Below are positions 4,415 to 60,354 of a stretch of DNA of 64,000 bases, in pieces. The stretch's first letter is position 1. The number at the start of each line of letters is the position of its first letter. The notes under the pieces are model-generated. The model did not search any database. It was not told the DNA's origin and saw only the letters and a program-made list of their open reading frames with translations. The position numbers were made by a program, and so were the translations under genes. Source of the DNA: a virus; the IMG/VR virus record IMGVR_UViG_2881147464_000001, positions 9,453 through 73,452 of that record; one strand, written 5' to 3'.

Positions 4415-4881
4415 TTCCACGCCCACCCGAGTTCGGACGCCGTGTTCCTCAAGATGTCGGCGAGCATCGGGGGGATTCCGTACTTCTTGACCGAATAGGA
4501 GAGGTTCATGGGCTCGCCGCCGTCACGCTCGACATTGGCGGCGCGCCAGTCACAGAACATCTCGACAAGACTCATCAGCGTCATGCCGGCCATGCCTCTG
4601 CCGATGTGCGCCTCAGGATGGTGATCGTTGTTCGCGTAGTGATGCGTGATCATGTCGCCGAGCATGGCGGTGCGCCGGCGCGCCTCGTCGGAGCCATAGG
4701 GCGCCGGACCTTCCTTCTCGATCAGAGTCAGCAGCGCATCTAGCGGCCCCTTTTCGGTCGGCGTGAACTTCGACGCGTCGTGCACCTCGGCCCGGGCATC
4801 CATCAGATCGCAAAACTGATGGATAGACGCCCGGACCAGGGCGATGTGGTTGAGGATGCTTTCCGTCGAGTCGACCATCAC
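4411..4881 (-). CDS. DUF5662-like / HD-related phage protein
   Basis: HDASKF, HHYANNDHHPE, LVEMFCDW motifs. Confidence 0.65.
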   Translation of the reverse strand: MMVDSTESILNHIALVRASIHQFCDLMDARAEVHDASKFTPTEKGPLDALLTLIEKEGPAPYGSDEARRRTAMLGDMITHHYANNDHHPEAHIGRGMAGMTLMSLVEMFCDWRAANVERDGGEPMNLSYSVKKYGIPPMLADILRNTASELGWAWK

Positions 4882-5999
4882 CCGACTCTCATCGGCATGA
4901 GGACATAGACCGACGCCGGATCCTTGTCAGTCGTGATGACTGTCGGACTACCCGGATCGATCAGGCTGATGCGGGCATCGCCGGTGCCGATCACCGTCAT
5001 GATGTCGCTCAGATACTTGGCGTTGAAGCCGATCTCGAGCGGTTCGCCGCCATACTGGACGTCGACATCCTCTTCGGCCGACCCATTGTCGGGGCTGTTG
5101 ACGGTCAAGCTCAGATGCTCGTCGGTAAAGGTCAGTTTGACCGCGCGGCCGCGCTCGGACGAAACCGTCGTGACGCGATCGGCCGCCGCCGACAGAATCT
5201 TGGAGGCGACGATAGCGATGCGATTGCCGATGGCGGGTATGACGCGTTTGTAGTCCGGAAAGGTGCCATCGATCAGTTTCGATACAAGCACCGTGGTGCC
5301 GACCGTCACACGGATCTTGTTCTCGCTCACCTCGACCTTGATCGGATCGGTGCCGGCGACCTTGGCCAGGGTGATGATCTCACTGATTGTCTTGCGCGGA
5401 ACGATGATGGGCGGAAACCCGTCGACGTCGCCATCTGGCTGTCGGTATGACGTCGCCAGGCGATGGCCGTCGGTGGCCACAAAGGTGATGGCATCCGGCT
5501 GGGCGTCATCCACGTTCCAGAAGACGCCGTTGAGATAATATCGCGTCTCCTCGGTCGAGATGGCGAATTGGACCTTGGAGAGCGCCTCGAGCAGCGCGTC
5601 GCCGGCGAACTGGATGGTGTGGGAATAGTTGCCGTCGGTCATCTGCGGATAGTCGCTATCCGGCAGCGTCTGCAGTCGGAACTTCGACCGGCCGGCACCG
5701 ACGCTGGCGACCTGGCCATCCGGCTCGCTCTCGAACATCACCTCGGAGCCGGGTGCCATCTTGCGCAGGATGTCGCTCAGCAGCTGTGCCGGCACACTCG
5801 TCGCACCCGGTCGCGCCACGGCGGCGCCGAGCGCCATCGTGATCTCGAGGTCGAGATCGGTGGCGCGCAGTTCGATACCGTCCTGCTTTGCCGAAACCAC
5901 AGCGTTCGATAGGATTGGAATGCTATTGCGGCGCTCGCATATTTTTTGGACGGCGGCCATAGCCGCGGCGAAGGCTTTTGCGTCGGCGACAAACTTCAT
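4878..5999 (-). CDS. dnaN: DNA polymerase III beta sliding clamp (copy 1)
   Basis: 373 aa; IPILSN, ATDLDLEI, AISTEETRYYLNG, VATDGHRL, LIDGTFPDY, IGFNAKY, VLMPMRV. Confidence 0.95.
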   Translation of the reverse strand: MKFVADAKAFAAAMAAVQKICERRNSIPILSNAVVSAKQDGIELRATDLDLEITMALGAAVARPGATSVPAQLLSDILRKMAPGSEVMFESEPDGQVASVGAGRSKFRLQTLPDSDYPQMTDGNYSHTIQFAGDALLEALSKVQFAISTEETRYYLNGVFWNVDDAQPDAITFVATDGHRLATSYRQPDGDVDGFPPIIVPRKTISEIITLAKVAGTDPIKVEVSENKIRVTVGTTVLVSKLIDGTFPDYKRVIPAIGNRIAIVASKILSAAADRVTTVSSERGRAVKLTFTDEHLSLTVNSPDNGSAEEDVDVQYGGEPLEIGFNAKYLSDIMTVIGTGDARISLIDPGSPTVITTDKDPASVYVLMPMRVG

Positions 6000-38949: not shown

Positions 38950-40296
38950 TCAGACGCGCATCGGCATGAGAACGCCAAGCCAGCCCTTGCGGTCCGGGGT
39001 GGTGATGACCGTCGGCGAGCCGGCATCGGCCATGGTGAGCGTGATGTCCTCGCCGCCGGCCGTGGCGATGAAATCCTGTATGTACTTCGCGTTGAATCCG
39101 ATCTCGATCATGTCGCCGGCATAGTCGGTTGCGACATCGGCATTCGCTGAGCCTTGATCCGGATTGTTGACAGCGAGGCGGCAATTGCCCCTATCGAAGG
39201 TGCATTTGACCGCGCGGCCCCTGTCGCTGGAAATGAGTTCGACGGCGCGCACGGCTTCCGCCAGGTCGGCGGACTTGAAGGATGCCGGCTTGTCGTTCTG
39301 TGTCGGGATGACGCGCTGATAGTCGGGGAATGTGCCGTCCACCAGCTTCGTCGTGACGGTGACATCATCGAACATGAGGCGAAGCATCTTGTCGGACAGT
39401 TCGATGCGAACGCTTGCCGGGCACGCCTTGCCCTTGAGCAGCTTCTGCAGGAGCGCGACAGTCTTCCGGGGTATGATGACGCCGGGCATCCCTGCCATGC
39501 CCTCCGTTGCCGCCAAATCCTGCCGGCAGAGCCTATGCCCATCGGTCGCGACCATGCGCAATGCGCCGTGATCGCCATGATAGGCGTCGATGGCGCGCGG
39601 CTCGACATGGTGCAGATAGACGCCGTTGAGATAGTAGCGGGTTTCCTCCGTCGAAATGGCCATGGCCACGCCGCCGAAGGATTCGACCAGATCGGCGCCG
39701 GGGACCGTGAAGGAATGCGACGGGTTGCCGCCCGACAGGTTCGGATAGTCAGCGACCGGCAAATCCTGAAGTCGATAGTTGACCTTTTCGAAATCGACCG
39801 TGACCGCGTTGCTGTCGCCGTGCGCAGCGGTGAAGCCGACGAATTCGGAAGCCGTCGCCTTCTTCACCAGGTCTTTCATCGTATGCGCCGGCAGCGTGAC
39901 GGCAAAGTGCGCATCGGCGGCGGCTGGAATCTTGACCGCGATTTCGATATCCAGATCGGTGCCGGTGACAGTCAGGTTGCTGCCGTCGCCCACCAGGCAG
40001 ACATTGGACAGGATCGGAATCGAGTTCCGCTTTTCGATCACGTTGGCGACGATTTCGAGCGCGCGGGTGAGCGCAGCTCGGTCGGCGAGTGCGGTTGCTG
40101 GCCCGACTGGCGCTTCCGGTTCGGCCTTGACCAGTTCATCGCGGCCGCTGGCGGCCTCATTGGCGGCGATCACTTCCGGCTCATGCGATGGCTCGACATT
40201 GAGCGCCTTGGCGGCCGCATAGTCGCTGAAGGACACGACCGCGCCAAGCGCAATCGCCGAAACACTGGAATTCGCAAAATTGGTATGAGCGTTCAT
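38950..40296 (-). CDS. dnaN: DNA polymerase III beta sliding clamp (copy 2) with about 70-aa N-terminal extension
   Basis: IPILSN, TGTDLDIEI, AISTEETRYYLNG, ATDGHRL, LVDGTFPDY, IGFNAKY, VLMPMRV. Confidence 0.93.
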   Translation of the reverse strand: MNAHTNFANSSVSAIALGAVVSFSDYAAAKALNVEPSHEPEVIAANEAASGRDELVKAEPEAPVGPATALADRAALTRALEIVANVIEKRNSIPILSNVCLVGDGSNLTVTGTDLDIEIAVKIPAAADAHFAVTLPAHTMKDLVKKATASEFVGFTAAHGDSNAVTVDFEKVNYRLQDLPVADYPNLSGGNPSHSFTVPGADLVESFGGVAMAISTEETRYYLNGVYLHHVEPRAIDAYHGDHGALRMVATDGHRLCRQDLAATEGMAGMPGVIIPRKTVALLQKLLKGKACPASVRIELSDKMLRLMFDDVTVTTKLVDGTFPDYQRVIPTQNDKPASFKSADLAEAVRAVELISSDRGRAVKCTFDRGNCRLAVNNPDQGSANADVATDYAGDMIEIGFNAKYIQDFIATAGGEDITLTMADAGSPTVITTPDRKGWLGVLMPMRV

Positions 40297-53891: not shown

Positions 53892-54441
53892 GACTGAGCC
53901 GTGTCCAGTTTGCCGAGGGCAGCGCACCATCAGGGTTCCGCTGTACAGATCTTTACAAGCATATCGCGCCGACGCACCGCCGGCGGTCGCCGAAGAAATA
54001 AGCCGGCAATATCCGTGCCCTGAATGCGCTCCAACGACATCGGAGGACAGGGTGGCCGTCATGAAGGTGAGCGGCCAGGCGGTCGTTCGCTCCTATGAAC
54101 TGGAATATGAAGAGTATGTGCGCAAATCGCTGGCTCACGATCTTGTCGATCTCATCTTTAGAAGTGGCCACATCACTTTCACCAAGGACAAGCCAGACGA
54201 AGGCACCATGACCGAGACGATCCGCGCCACGATTGGCATCGTATCTGCCGCGACTGTCGCCTCAATGGAGGAGCGAATCGCGGAGCGGCAAATGGAACTC
54301 GCATCTAAGCTGGTAGGTGCTGCAGCCGAGGAGATCCGCGTCTGGGACAGCTATTATACCGGCGACGGCGGCAATATCAGCAAGGGGCAGGCCGTGGATG
54401 CCGTCTCGCGTGCTTTCAAGAAGCTTTCGGGGGCAGCATGA
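53884..54441 (+). CDS. hypothetical Zn-finger-like protein
   Basis: CPVC...CPEC. Confidence 0.6.
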   Translation: MSETEPCPVCRGQRTIRVPLYRSLQAYRADAPPAVAEEISRQYPCPECAPTTSEDRVAVMKVSGQAVVRSYELEYEEYVRKSLAHDLVDLIFRSGHITFTKDKPDEGTMTETIRATIGIVSAATVASMEERIAERQMELASKLVGAAAEEIRVWDSYYTGDGGNISKGQAVDAVSRAFKKLSGAA

Positions 54442-54875
54442 TCGAAGATCTGATTGCACGACTCGAGCAGCTTGAAGCGCCTGACCGGGATATCGATCGC
54501 GAACTCGGCGCTCTTTGGCCCGAGCCGCGACCGTTCAATATTTCATTGGCGGCCATGCGGAACGGGATGCCAATCTGTCCAGCCTTCACCAGCGACCTCA
54601 ACGCCGCGGTGAAGTTGCTCGAGCGAATCCTGCCGGGCTTTGCCTGGAAGATCGGGACGTGCTGCGTCTCCGATGATGCGTGGGTTGTTCCGGATTTCAA
54701 CTGCCCGACGCATGGCGAGCGGCTGTTGAAAGAATACGGCAAGCCGGCGCCGCGCAGCATCTGGGATGTCGGCATCGACATTGACCGCCGGCCGCCGGGG
54801 AATGTGGCGATCGCGCTCTGTCTCGCCGTGGTGACAGCCTATGCTGAGACGTTGAGGATGATGGAGGCAACATGA
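54438..54875 (+). CDS. hypothetical phage protein
   Basis: DLIARLE...DRDID...FTSDLNAAVKL motif. Confidence 0.65.
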   Translation: MIEDLIARLEQLEAPDRDIDRELGALWPEPRPFNISLAAMRNGMPICPAFTSDLNAAVKLLERILPGFAWKIGTCCVSDDAWVVPDFNCPTHGERLLKEYGKPAPRSIWDVGIDIDRRPPGNVAIALCLAVVTAYAETLRMMEAT

Positions 54876-55051
54876 TCGAGACCTACTACCTCGCTTGCGA
54901 GTATCACCGCCCGTATAAAGTTTTCCTCGATCTCAAGTCTGCAAAGGATGAGGTGCAGCCATTCATCGATCAGGGACTCAACTTTCAGGTGGCGGAAGTG
55001 GAAGTAAAGGCCTTCCACGAAGGGCAGGCATGGAAGCGTGACGTTGCATGA
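54872..55051 (+). CDS. small hypothetical protein
   Basis: Hand translation MIETYYLACEY...; ATGA overlaps both ends. Confidence 0.55.
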   Translation: MIETYYLACEYHRPYKVFLDLKSAKDEVQPFIDQGLNFQVAEVEVKAFHEGQAWKRDVA

Positions 55052-56019
55052 GGCAGATCGTCCGCATCAAATTCGGCTCGCATCTCTATGGGACGTCGAC
55101 TCCACAATCGGATCTCGACTTCAAGAGCGTGTTCATCCCGGACGGCAGATCTATCCTGCTTCAGCGGGCAAAGAATACGATCAACGACCAGCGCCCAAAG
55201 GCGGAGCGTGAGAAGAACTACGCCGGCGAGGTCGAGGAGGAGAGGTTCAGCCTCCAGCGCTTCCTTGGACTACTTGCCGAAGGGCAGACGGTGGCGCTGG
55301 ACGTCCTGTTCGCACCAGAATGGGCGATGACGGACGATCCGTCCTGGCACTGGCAAGAGATTCTCGACAACCGCGATCGGTTGCTGACGAGGAAGTCCGC
55401 GGCGTTCATCGGCTATGCCAAGCAGCAGGCAGCCAAATATGGGATACGCGGCTCGCGTGTCGCCGCGGCCCGGGCGGCATTGGCATTGTTGAAGGCGGCT
55501 CTTTCGGCGACGGACAAACTCGGCGGACTGGATCCCGACATCAGATCGTTGATGGTCAAGCACGACCACATGAGTCTTGTCGAGGATACGACGCCTCACG
55601 GGCAGAGAGTCCTGCTCTGGGAAGTATGCAACCGGAAAATGCCGTACACGGCGTCGATCAGGAATGCGCACGACATCATGCAACGCGTGGTCGACGAGTA
55701 CGGCAAGCGCGCGCTGATGGCTGAGAGCAACCAAGGAGTCGACTGGAAGGCGCTCTCACATGCCGTGCGCGTCGGAAACCAAGCAATCGAGCTCCTCCTG
55801 ACCGGTTTCGTGACCTTTCCATTGCCGAATGCTGCCCATGTGCTCGAGATCAAGCGGGGACTCCTGCCGTACCAGGTTGTGGCGGCAGAGATCGAGTACC
55901 TTCTCGAGCGCGTTGAGGCTGCGGCGGCAGCTTCAACGTTGCCAGCAGAGCCGGATCTGGCCTGGATCGACGACTTCGTGGCAAGTTCATATCGGGATGA
56001 AGTGTTAGGTGCGAGATGA
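55048..56019 (+). CDS. DNA pol beta-superfamily nucleotidyltransferase (RNA-repair-associated / NrdC.11-like)
   Basis: FGSHLYGTSTPQSDLDFKSVF; DWKALSHAVR. Confidence 0.85.
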   Translation: MRQIVRIKFGSHLYGTSTPQSDLDFKSVFIPDGRSILLQRAKNTINDQRPKAEREKNYAGEVEEERFSLQRFLGLLAEGQTVALDVLFAPEWAMTDDPSWHWQEILDNRDRLLTRKSAAFIGYAKQQAAKYGIRGSRVAAARAALALLKAALSATDKLGGLDPDIRSLMVKHDHMSLVEDTTPHGQRVLLWEVCNRKMPYTASIRNAHDIMQRVVDEYGKRALMAESNQGVDWKALSHAVRVGNQAIELLLTGFVTFPLPNAAHVLEIKRGLLPYQVVAAEIEYLLERVEAAAAASTLPAEPDLAWIDDFVASSYRDEVLGAR

Positions 56020-56375
56020 CCAGTTCAACCGATGAATTGCGGATCGCCGTCATTTTCCGCGCCGACATCGACATTCCGCGCGGCAAGGGGGAGGTCCAGT
56101 TCGGCCATGCGGTGGCATTGCTGGTTCACGGCGGCGGCGAGGTGGCCACTTCCTATATGGCCGGTCTCCAGATGAAGTTGAGCATGGAAGTCGATGATCT
56201 GGATGCGATAGCGCTCATTATGGCGAAGGCAAAGGCGAGGGGCGTTCCATTTGCGGTTGTCGAGGACGCCGGCCGGACCGTCTTCGGCGAGCCGACGATT
56301 ACCTGCATCGGACTCGGTCCGATGAACAAGACTGACTGCAACGCGCTGACGCGGAATGCGAGGATGCGGAAATGA
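56016..56375 (+). CDS. Pth2-type peptidyl-tRNA hydrolase
   Basis: [10 protein letters not shown]; [20 protein letters not shown]. Confidence 0.82.
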
Positions 56376-56917
56376 TCGAATGGCAAGCCAACTATCCATG
56401 CCGATATGGCGAGGCGCTAGAGGAGAGGGCGCTCGCCTTCGCGACCGCAGCGCACGCCTCGATCGACCAGCGCAGAAAATATACAAATCAACCGTACATC
56501 GAGCATCCAATAGCGGTCGCTGAGATCGTCCGGTCGGTTCCGCATACGCCGGAAATGATCGCCGCGGCATACCTGCACGACGTCGTGGAAGACACTCCAA
56601 TCACCTTGAACAAAATCCTCCAAGAATTCGGGCGCGAGGTAGTGACTCTTGTGTCCTGGTTGACTGACGTCTCTTTGCCGCTGGACGGCAACCGCGCCGC
56701 TCGGAAGGCTATCGACCTGGCGCATACCGCCAAGGCGCCGTCGGCCGCGAAGACGATCAAGCTGGCCGATCTGATCGACAACACGCTTACCATCAAACAG
56801 CGCGATCCGGATTTCTGGCGCGTCTACCGGCATGAGAAACTGCGGCTGCTCGATGTGCTGAAGGAAGGTGACGCAACGCTCTGGGCGCGCGCGGCCGCGC
56901 AGTGTGATGTCCCGTGA
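56372..56917 (+). CDS. HD-domain RelA/SpoT-type small alarmone hydrolase (SAH/Mesh1-like)
   Basis: FATAAH..QRRKY..PYIEHP; [11 protein letters not shown]; LTD; IKLADLIDN. Confidence 0.88.
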
Positions 56918-58249: not shown

Positions 58250-58459
58250 GTGAAACATACGATCACCATTACCTTCGACGATGAGGCCAAGATCGTGGAG
58301 GTTGTTGAAACTGGAGGGAAAGCCACCAGACTGAGGAGCGCAATTATGACGGTCGAGCGCAAGCCGGTCGAGGATACGGATGGTGAACCCAGCCTTTACC
58401 GCAAACTCAAGCGAGGCCCGGAAATGGAGATCCATATTGTAGGGCTCGTCCATGACTGA
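58250..58459 (+). CDS. small hypothetical protein
   Basis: AGGAG SD, GTG start. Confidence 0.55.
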   Translation: MKHTITITFDDEAKIVEVVETGGKATRLRSAIMTVERKPVEDTDGEPSLYRKLKRGPEMEIHIVGLVHD

Positions 58460-58973
58460 CCTATCCCGCCGCAACTTCCTCAAAGGCCTCATGGCGGCCG
58501 CCGGCGTCGCCGCGGTCGGCATGCCAGTGATTGCCGCAGTCGAGGCGGTGGCTGTACCGGCATTGCCCTTTCCGGATCATGATGTCGGCGACGTCTTCAT
58601 GAAGGTCAACGACGTCTGGCGTCTTCTCGGCAAGTCGACCAGCTTGACGGTGAATATGGCGAGGAGCGTCTCGTTCGCATCCCTTGAGCAAATAGATCGG
58701 CTAGATCATCGATATTACTGTCTGCCGGATCCGATGGAATTGAGCGTTGAGGCTCTTCTCGACAATGAGGGCCGAGGATTGCTCATGGGTGAGTTCTCAT
58801 CCGGCCGACACATTGATTTTGCCATGTCGCAGGGTGAAAACGGCCTCTACATGATCAAGAAATCATTCATCCGAGAGGTCTGTGCGACCTGCCGCCATGA
58901 GTTGGTAATTGACAGTTTCGAACTCAATCCGAGTGAGATTGAAGTGACGATTCCGGCGGCAGAGGCAGTCTGA
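58452..58973 (+). CDS. Tat-signal-bearing hypothetical protein
   Basis: MTDLSRRNFLKGLMAAAGVAA. Confidence 0.65.
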   Translation: MTDLSRRNFLKGLMAAAGVAAVGMPVIAAVEAVAVPALPFPDHDVGDVFMKVNDVWRLLGKSTSLTVNMARSVSFASLEQIDRLDHRYYCLPDPMELSVEALLDNEGRGLLMGEFSSGRHIDFAMSQGENGLYMIKKSFIREVCATCRHELVIDSFELNPSEIEVTIPAAEAV

Positions 58974-60149: not shown

Positions 60150-60182
60150 ATGAACGCTCTCCAGCAACAGCGGCGCCGGTAA
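60150..60182 (+). CDS. candidate leader peptide MNALQQQRRR
   Basis: ATG AAC GCT CTC CAG CAA CAG CGG CGC CGG TAA, ends 7 nt before tRNA-Arg. Confidence 0.35.
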   Translation: MNALQQQRRR

Positions 60183-60189
60183 CCATCAC

Positions 60190-60266
60190 CGCCGCGTGGC
60201 TCAACTGGATAGAGCATCAGATTTCGACTCTGAGGGTTGTGGGTTCGAATCCTACCGCGGCGACCA
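60190..60266 (+). tRNA. tRNA-Arg (anticodon UCG)
   Basis: Acceptor CGCCGCG/CGCGGCG, anticodon arm TCAGA-TTTCGAC-TCTGA, T-loop GGTTCGAATCC, encoded CCA. Confidence 0.93.
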
Positions 60267-60267
60267 T

Positions 60268-60341
60268 TCCCGCTTCGTCTAATGGTAGGACACCGCCCTT
60301 TGAAGGCGTGAATCGTGGTTCGAGCCCATGAGCGGGAACCA
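60268..60341 (+). tRNA. tRNA-Gln (anticodon UUG)
   Basis: Acceptor TCCCGCT/AGCGGGA, loop CTTTGAA, T-loop GGTTCGAGCC, encoded CCA. Confidence 0.92.
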
Positions 60342-60354
60342 AAAGATCTTGGCC

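Follow-up and report, generated by a model that had tools for sequence, protein, structure and literature searches.

Coupled genes for an RlaP-type nucleotidyltransferase, a Pth2-family hydrolase and an alarmone hydrolase in a rhizobial prophage: a candidate accessory cassette for tRNA rescue

Do three adjoining genes of a temperate phage, at positions 55048 to 56917 of a 64,000-nucleotide stretch of DNA (the window; bases 9453 to 73452 of the IMG/VR provirus record IMGVR_UViG_2881147464_000001), together keep tRNA usable when a bacterium turns against it? The genes are predicted to encode a Pol-beta nucleotidyltransferase (NTase) of the RlaP/NrdC.11 type, a Pth2-family peptidyl-tRNA hydrolase and a stand-alone small alarmone hydrolase (SAH). 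Many anti-phage systems disable tRNA, among them toxSAS/CapRel, PrrC/RloC, PARIS, retrons and GNAT toxins, and the means by which temperate phages escape them are largely unknown. We favor the reading, with a probability of about 0.55, that the trio is a prophage accessory cassette of parallel counter-defense and translation-maintenance tools and not a pathway of three fixed steps. As a small and testable three-gene set with natural variants that contain RtcB, Ro60 or nothing, the locus could reveal whether an SAH, a Pth2 and an RNA-end NTase cooperate on tRNA 3' ends, and it provides a new genetic context for the poorly understood RlaP/NrdC.11 family, which is present in T4.

The source record is a provirus of 108,657 bases with an estimated completeness of 93%, and identical DNA lies near 4.0 Mb in a 7.78-Mb chromosome (CP034448.1), in which the provirus is integrated. 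The large open reading frames (ORFs) of the window include replication, recombination and methylation genes of phage type. The trio consists of three intact ORFs on the plus strand, whose starts at 55048, 56016 and 56372 overlap the preceding stop codons as ATGA in a direct reading of the sequence, and forms the final part of a six-gene chain with 4-base overlaps (approximately 54052 to 56917 in the gene calls) that is followed by a 155-base gap. It is located inside a long same-strand run of small early-type genes 3' of the replication genes. In all likelihood, the three genes are co-transcribed. An original prediction, made from the letters alone, had described three coupled genes with quoted motifs for a Pol-beta NTase, a Pth2 and an SAH, and two CCA-encoding tRNA genes 3.3 kb downstream; the ORFs and overlaps are confirmed, all three products pass the curated Pfam cut-offs for these families, and ARAGORN and Rfam recover both tRNAs with an encoded A-CCA.

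The NTase matches the RlaP family PF10127 with 44 bits (curated cut-off, 23; E = 2.9e-11) over residues 6 to 139 only and matches PHROG 388 (phrog_388) over its full length (E = 1.7e-79); a PF10127 tag is also precomputed for the same protein. It is 37 to 45% identical to NrdC.11-type NTases in >1,500 phage records, including T4-likes, Erythrobacter phages XM05 and L02, and Caulobacter phage Cr30. The closest homolog, at 96% identity, is named Mesorhizobium sp., and other close homologs are named Mesorhizobium, Rhizobium, Shinella and Bradyrhizobium. The Pol-beta catalytic set is present, with the motif GSHLYG...SDLD at residues 10 to 24: G10-S11, D22 and D24 are invariant and D85 is aligned with D/E in 11 diverse relatives, the catalytic residues are likewise invariant across 24 close relatives, and the D85 alignment extends to canonical RlaPs of jumbo phages. 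The AlphaFold model (pLDDT 83) contains an NTase domain and a helical domain. Foldseek finds weak best matches (E ≥ 0.008) to HalB and aminoglycoside NTases and no MenT-like structure, and a sequence search of the PDB matched no solved structure. Searches of Pfam, NCBIfam and PADLOC returned no toxin or defense family and neither AbiEii nor MenT; the sole MntA-antitoxin-like signal covers 19 residues at 13 bits, below threshold. The profile matches indicate that the NTase is a predicted RNA-repair enzyme of the RlaP/NrdC.11 type and not, as the original prediction had entertained, of the MenT/AbiEii type.

According to a preprint, two Pseudomonas RlaPs (PfRlaP and PaRlaP) add one or two nucleoside monophosphates to an RNA 3'-OH, an activity known solely for these two enzymes, and prefer cleaved or damaged tRNA mimics; T4 NrdC.11 is assigned there to the RlaP family (PMC12776372). 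The window NTase shares the Pol-beta core, the GS motif, the D-x-D and a third acidic residue with T4 NrdC.11, phiKZ gp237 and PfRlaP/PaRlaP, whereas it differs from canonical RlaPs in its length (323 amino acids), its longer helical C-terminal half and an identity of only 17 to 20%. RtcB is found beside RlaP in the Pseudomonas rtcB-rlaP-rtcA operons and likewise in relatives of the window prophage, whereas the window RlaP is coupled to Pth2 and SAH genes, and an RNA ligase was not found in the record. The genes of ~117 to 123 codons that overlap the starts of NrdC.11-type NTase genes in T4-likes, XM05 and Cr30 were considered as cryptic Pth2 genes and rejected (hhalign probabilities of 0.2 to 2%; no Pfam match). 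In Cr30 (L005, 4997 to 5797), the NrdC.11-type NTase gene is immediately followed by a gene annotated only as hypothetical that matches Acb3, an inhibitor of the cyclic oligonucleotide-based anti-phage signaling system CBASS (PF25187; E = 1.8e-68).

The second product matches PF01981 with 57.8 bits (cut-off, 23; E = 1.5e-15) and the sequences of seven solved Pth2 structures, with E values as low as 4.5e-12, including 1XTY, 1RLK, 2ZV3 and 1Q7S. The motif EDAGRT...TCIGLGP is present, and K24, D84 and T88 are invariant among 20 clade members. In the alignment to 1XTY, these residues occupy the positions of K18, D86 and T90, which we take to be the catalytic residues of Sulfolobus solfataricus Pth2. 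Scores remain below the NCBIfam equivalog cut-offs (64.2 bits versus 126 and 54.3 bits versus 82; NF003314 / TIGR00283), and the protein is therefore best classed by its profile scores as a Pth2 family member, not as an equivalog of archaeal Pth2. Its fold family is common to archaeal and eukaryotic Pth2 (S. solfataricus, 1XTY; human PTRH2/Bit1, 1Q7S). Like the PTH2 of jumbo phages (PMC7824862), it is encoded by a virus of bacteria, but its carrier is a temperate phage of ~100 kb, and it is 25 to 35% identical to other phage Pth2 proteins, from which a clade-specific basic C-terminal tail also distinguishes it. A search recovered 39 clusters of this small clade and, in IMG/VR, just one further contig. 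Other phage Pth2 genes have settings of their own: in Caulobacter phage CcrBL9 (L023, 2380 to 3111), a 243-amino-acid "hydrolase" has the Pth2 domain as its C-terminal half; in Sinorhizobium phage Phosso (L020, 2914 to 3702), the gene after Pth2 encodes an ATP-grasp protein of the R2K clade; and a RelA/SpoT-annotated synthetase-like gene lies 0.9 kb 5' of Pth2 in Sinorhizobium phage phiM12 (L021, 696 to 1448), with a weak match to PF04607 below the cut-off (E = 2.5e-4).

The third product matches PF13328 (HD_4) with 60.7 bits (cut-off, 27.2; E = 1.8e-16), matches the RelA/SpoT model TIGR00691 at positions 2 to 125 of 687 only, which is the hydrolase part, and matches the sequences of MESH1, SpoT and Rel structures. 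H45, H69-D70, E73-D74, D133 and N137 are invariant among 14 relatives, and the motif LHDVVED is present. The protein is 45% identical over 149 amino acids (E = 2e-40) to PaSpo, the SAH of Salmonella phage SSU5, and may be termed PaSpo-like on this pairwise similarity. SSU5 PaSpo neutralizes all five toxSAS tested (CapRel, PhRel2, FaRel2, PhRel and FaRel [PMC7229694, Table 1]) and strips from tRNA the modification that FaRel2 adds. The similarity lends weight to the link that had been proposed between this SAH and tRNA pyrophosphorylation by toxSAS/CapRel. Jimmy et al. (2020) describe many prophage SAHs and proposed that they bypass toxSAS defense (PMC7229694). Like SSU5 PaSpo (and ATfaRel and MESH1), the window SAH is a single-domain SpoT-type hydrolase that retains all metal-binding and catalytic motifs, and, as in SSU5, no partner toxSAS accompanies this stand-alone phage gene. 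A toxSAS-SAH toxin-antitoxin pair has a toxic synthetase gene next to the hydrolase gene; here, the neighbors are RlaP and Pth2, and no RelA_SpoT synthetase domain (PF04607) was detected across the entire provirus; the SAH therefore does not serve as the antitoxin of a local toxSAS. SSU5 PaSpo and most phage SAHs differ from the SAHs of one prophage clade, which includes that of the window, in that the latter are physically linked to RlaP, RtcB, Pth2 or Ro60.

This linkage recurs in related prophages and was examined from the side of each gene, using custom hidden Markov models for RtcB, YAcAr and Ro60 that were built from two to four sequences and may miss distant members. The window has the order RlaP-Pth2-SAH, and Pth2 homologs at 62 to 73% identity stand in a mosaic of gene arrangements: Pth2-RlaP-x-SAH in one contig family (L002/L008/L009), Pth2-RlaP-SAH-YAcAr in L014, Pth2-RtcB-x-SAH in L015, Pth2-SAH with YAcAr next or one gene beyond in L006/7, L012 and L013, and Pth2 alone in L010. 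The full trio thus occurs in two further distinct contexts (the L002/L008/L009 family and L014) and pairs occur in more, which upholds the expected co-location in other phages. The interpretation offered by the original prediction is partly supported; one limit on it is that the linkage stays within a single phage lineage, with each gene mostly alone elsewhere. YAcAr, a protein of the SLOG superfamily (PF10686), is repeatedly found beside SAH (L006, L012, L013 and L014) and just before it in L062. A Shinella prophage has the order RtcB-RlaP-SAH. In a Mesorhizobium plurifarium prophage, RlaP is followed by an HNH-endonuclease domain in frame with SAH: a 302-amino-acid "HD_4" protein (L058, 4465 to 5373) whose N-terminal HNH-like region (CxxC...DH...CxxCH) occupies the slot that Pth2 has in the window, and which may be a fusion or have a mis-called start.

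Seen from RlaP, SAH is adjacent, in both orders, at 11 of 80 IMG/VR loci with this NTase type; RtcB lies within 4 kb at five and Pth2 at one (L065, identical to L002). RtcB is adjacent in L059, L064 and L015 and within 4 kb in L063, L070, L079 and L117. A quick maximum-likelihood RlaP tree (IQ-TREE) places the SAH-linked NTases in one clade with 99% support, in which 13 of 18 rows are linked (SAH downstream in nine, upstream in four and absent in five); one SAH-linked RlaP (L083) falls outside it, and the three members of the clade that also have Pth2 do not group together. Further neighbors in the SAH-linked clade are Ro60/TROVE (L068 and L083), RtcB (L063 and L070) and a calcineurin-type phosphoesterase (L073). 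Beyond this lineage, the Brevundimonas jumbo phage Gurke encodes a Pth2 (32% identity) directly followed by an RlaP of the canonical type (E = 1.7e-72), which is an independent recurrence of the pair with a different RlaP subtype, and an annotated RNA ligase lies ≤1.5 kb from two of the closest isolated-phage RlaPs. The arrangement is a lineage-specific mosaic, in which the SAH-RlaP core of one Rhizobiales-type prophage clade gained Pth2, RtcB, Ro60, YAcAr or selfish elements at various times.

By homology to characterized relatives, the three enzymes can be given putative roles. RlaP would put back nucleotides lost from cleaved or truncated tRNAs. Pth2 would cleave the ester linkage in peptidyl-tRNA, and plausibly that in N-acylated aminoacyl-tRNA as well, and could thereby release tRNA trapped by ribosome stalling or toxin action. 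The PaSpo-like SAH would degrade (p)ppGpp and (pp)pApp and could take off the 3'-pyrophosphate that toxSAS (CapRel, FaRel2 and PhRel2) place on the tRNA CCA end. From these parts taken together, we infer a single common purpose, in which the enzymes would act jointly on one pool of tRNA. The rescue of damaged tRNA suggests itself as their common theme because the inserts whose function can be recognized are overwhelmingly RNA-repair enzymes, because adjacency outlasts the reordering of genes and because the Pth2-RlaP pair recurs in a distant phage. An obligate pathway is disfavored, since each gene is mostly alone elsewhere and an HNH endonuclease is able to fill the slot. A theme of tRNA rescue without an obligate pathway therefore favors a cassette of parallel tools.

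Several observations weigh against this cassette. Among the 80 closest viral SAH loci, 78 have no RlaP, RtcB, Pth2, YAcAr or Ro60 within 4 kb, and Pth2 homologs below ~60% identity stand alone, including those at prophage-like loci in a Sphingomonas genome and in a gammaproteobacterial metagenome-assembled genome. Pth2 was not detected near the closest isolated-phage homologs of RlaP (XM05, L02, Cr30, T4-likes, CcrColossus, Psa21 and BcepSauron) or of SAH (phiKM1, D6, TPWB-08, V1VFA-S and SSU5). The linkage is lineage-limited and might largely reflect common descent, and the slot between the genes also accepts unknown small ORFs besides the HNH endonuclease, as would a plain insertion hot spot. 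Repair partners are missing too: neither RtcB nor an Rnl2-type ligase, a PNK-like (AAA_33) kinase or a CCA-adding enzyme was found in the 108.7-kb record, nor was a T4 Rnl1-type ligase, in a search that had no positive control. Ligation following RlaP action would therefore require a host enzyme. YAcAr and TROVE/Ro60 were not found in the record either.

The strongest competitor is the view that the three genes are unrelated passengers of a variable accessory region, adjacent through shared ancestry and an insertion hot spot; it is a real possibility, although we think it the less probable account. SAH would then damp the host stringent response, Pth2 would generally step up the recycling of peptidyl-tRNA while phage translation is heavy, RlaP would have another RNA role, and a locus of independently acting genes would be an ordinary accessory-gene cluster of known parts. 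The isolated SAH loci and divergent Pth2 genes just described agree with this view, as do the 62 of 80 IMG/VR RlaP loci that stand alone, without partners within 4 kb, the sharing of the slot with an HNH endonuclease and unknown ORFs, the restriction of nearly all SAH-linked RlaPs to one clade and the position of the trio as merely the tail of a longer overlapping-gene chain of unknown function. It is harder to reconcile with the nature of the inserts, since, HNH aside, all sizeable recognizable ones act on RNA (RlaP, RtcB, Ro60 and a Pnkp-like phosphoesterase 1 kb off), or with the persistence of adjacency through changes of gene order, whether viewed from Pth2 or from RlaP, and its reappearance in the jumbo phage Gurke.

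A tighter functional bond than parallel tools is doubtful. In such a scheme, the SAH of this clade would not be (only) alarmone-degrading and would heal RNA 3' ends as part of RtcB/RlaP/Ro60 repair, stripping 3'-pyrophosphate, 3'-phosphate or cyclic phosphate for extension by RlaP, while Pth2 would clear acyl or peptidyl groups from the same ribose; the three would form a dedicated acceptor-end pathway.

Less probable still is that the resident prophage uses the genes to shield a Mesorhizobium-type host from the (p)ppApp-synthetase or tRNase toxins of competitors (delivered by type VI secretion, contact-dependent inhibition or bacteriocins) or from superinfecting phages, rather than for its own lytic growth. 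Integration of the element in the 7.78-Mb chromosome and the lack of a toxSAS of its own fit such protection, and SAHs are described as resistance factors against alarmone-synthetase toxins; the genes, however, lie in the early-type block 3' of the replication genes, and homologs of RlaP, Pth2 and SAH are common in strictly lytic phages (T4-likes and jumbo phages). A toxin-antitoxin or abortive-infection module, in which the NTase would be a tRNA-modifying toxin akin to MenT/AbiEii and its antidotes would be Pth2, the HD hydrolase or both, is very improbable: it can draw on the tight gene coupling and on the general precedent of Pol-beta NTases as tRNA-acceptor-stem toxins (PMC10435456), but it lacks support because the NTase is of the RlaP/NrdC.11 RNA-repair type by PF10127 and phrog_388, its homologs are single genes in >1,500 phage genomes and the proposed antidotes are absent within 4 kb from the 62 solitary loci.

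Each of the three enzyme families is already known in phages, and the general idea has been published for jumbo phages; keeping them side by side is lineage specific. Iyer et al. (Iyer, Anantharaman, Krishnan, Burroughs and Aravind, 2021) listed RlaP, PTH2 and an "HD-alarmone PDEase" as counter-defense parts of jumbo phages, the first two under RNA repair/ribosome rescue and the HD enzyme under counter-nucleotide-signaling (PMC7824862). The cassette follows the same logic as that toolkit and as T4 Pnk-Rnl1 against PrrC, with phage enzymes mending or recycling ribotoxin-hit tRNA. The toolkit parts are handled separately, however, with SAH unlinked to RNA repair, whereas in the window three genes are coupled in a temperate alphaproteobacterial phage in which no ligase or kinase was found. 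Bacterial operons of the rsr(Ro60)-Y RNA-rtcBA type are RNA-repair operons. Relatives of the cassette likewise hold Ro60/TROVE and RtcB beside RlaP-SAH, whereas the window has neither. An Rfam scan for Y RNA and other RNA families at gathering thresholds found only tRNAs, plus one permuted transfer-messenger RNA (tmRNA). No linkage of RlaP and SAH (with or without RtcB or Ro60), and no report joining RtcB with an alarmone hydrolase, was found in the literature searched, outside which lay the 2016 paper naming RlaP.

Among these relatives, phage-encoded Ro60/TROVE proteins with a vWA domain stand beside SAH-RlaP in L068 (5846 to 7498) and L083 (210 to 1850); in L083, four tRNA genes lie between Ro60 and SAH. 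The permuted, two-piece tmRNA gene is in L015 (5068 to 5259), ~1.6 kb 3' of Pth2-RtcB-SAH, and ends at the contig edge; it could be phage-borne or a host ssrA attachment site. Features of the window are collected in Table 1.

Table 1. Genes of the trio and nearby features, in window positions
Feature	Position	Strand	Basis
145-amino-acid gene, chain member upstream of the trio	54438..54875	+	ORF; also called in the chromosome record and Logan contig L052
59-amino-acid gene, ATGA overlap with the NTase start	54872..55051	+	ORF, gene calls, sequence
Predicted RlaP / T4 NrdC.11-type Pol-beta NTase, 323 amino acids	55048..56019	+	PF10127, phrog_388
Predicted Pth2-family peptidyl-tRNA hydrolase, divergent clade, 119 amino acids	56016..56375	+	PF01981, solved Pth2 structures
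Predicted stand-alone SpoT-type SAH, PaSpo-like, 181 amino acids	56372..56917	+	PF13328 HD_4, MESH1/SpoT/Rel matches
tRNA-Arg(UCG) and tRNA-Gln(UUG), context only	60190..60342	+	ARAGORN, Rfam, sequence

The 145-amino-acid protein upstream of the trio matched no family in a Pfam search, and a promoter and terminator scan of 50.5 to 60.5 kb gave counts not above those of shuffled sequence. tRNA genes are also found 0.3 to 1.5 kb from the cassette in the relatives L059, L064 and L083. In the window, a mini-ORF (MNALQQQRRR, 60150 to 60182) stops 7 to 8 bases 5' of tRNA-Arg, with tRNA-Gln directly next, and its runs of Gln and Arg codons correspond to the two adjoining tRNAs. Also 3' of the trio, a 173-amino-acid protein with a twin-arginine (TAT) signal is encoded at 58452 to 58973; the M. 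plurifarium prophage has a 171-amino-acid TAT-signal protein at the equivalent relative position. Two distinct sliding-clamp-like genes lie in different blocks of the window (4878 to 5999 and 38950 to 40296; phrog_947, E of ~1e-80 each).

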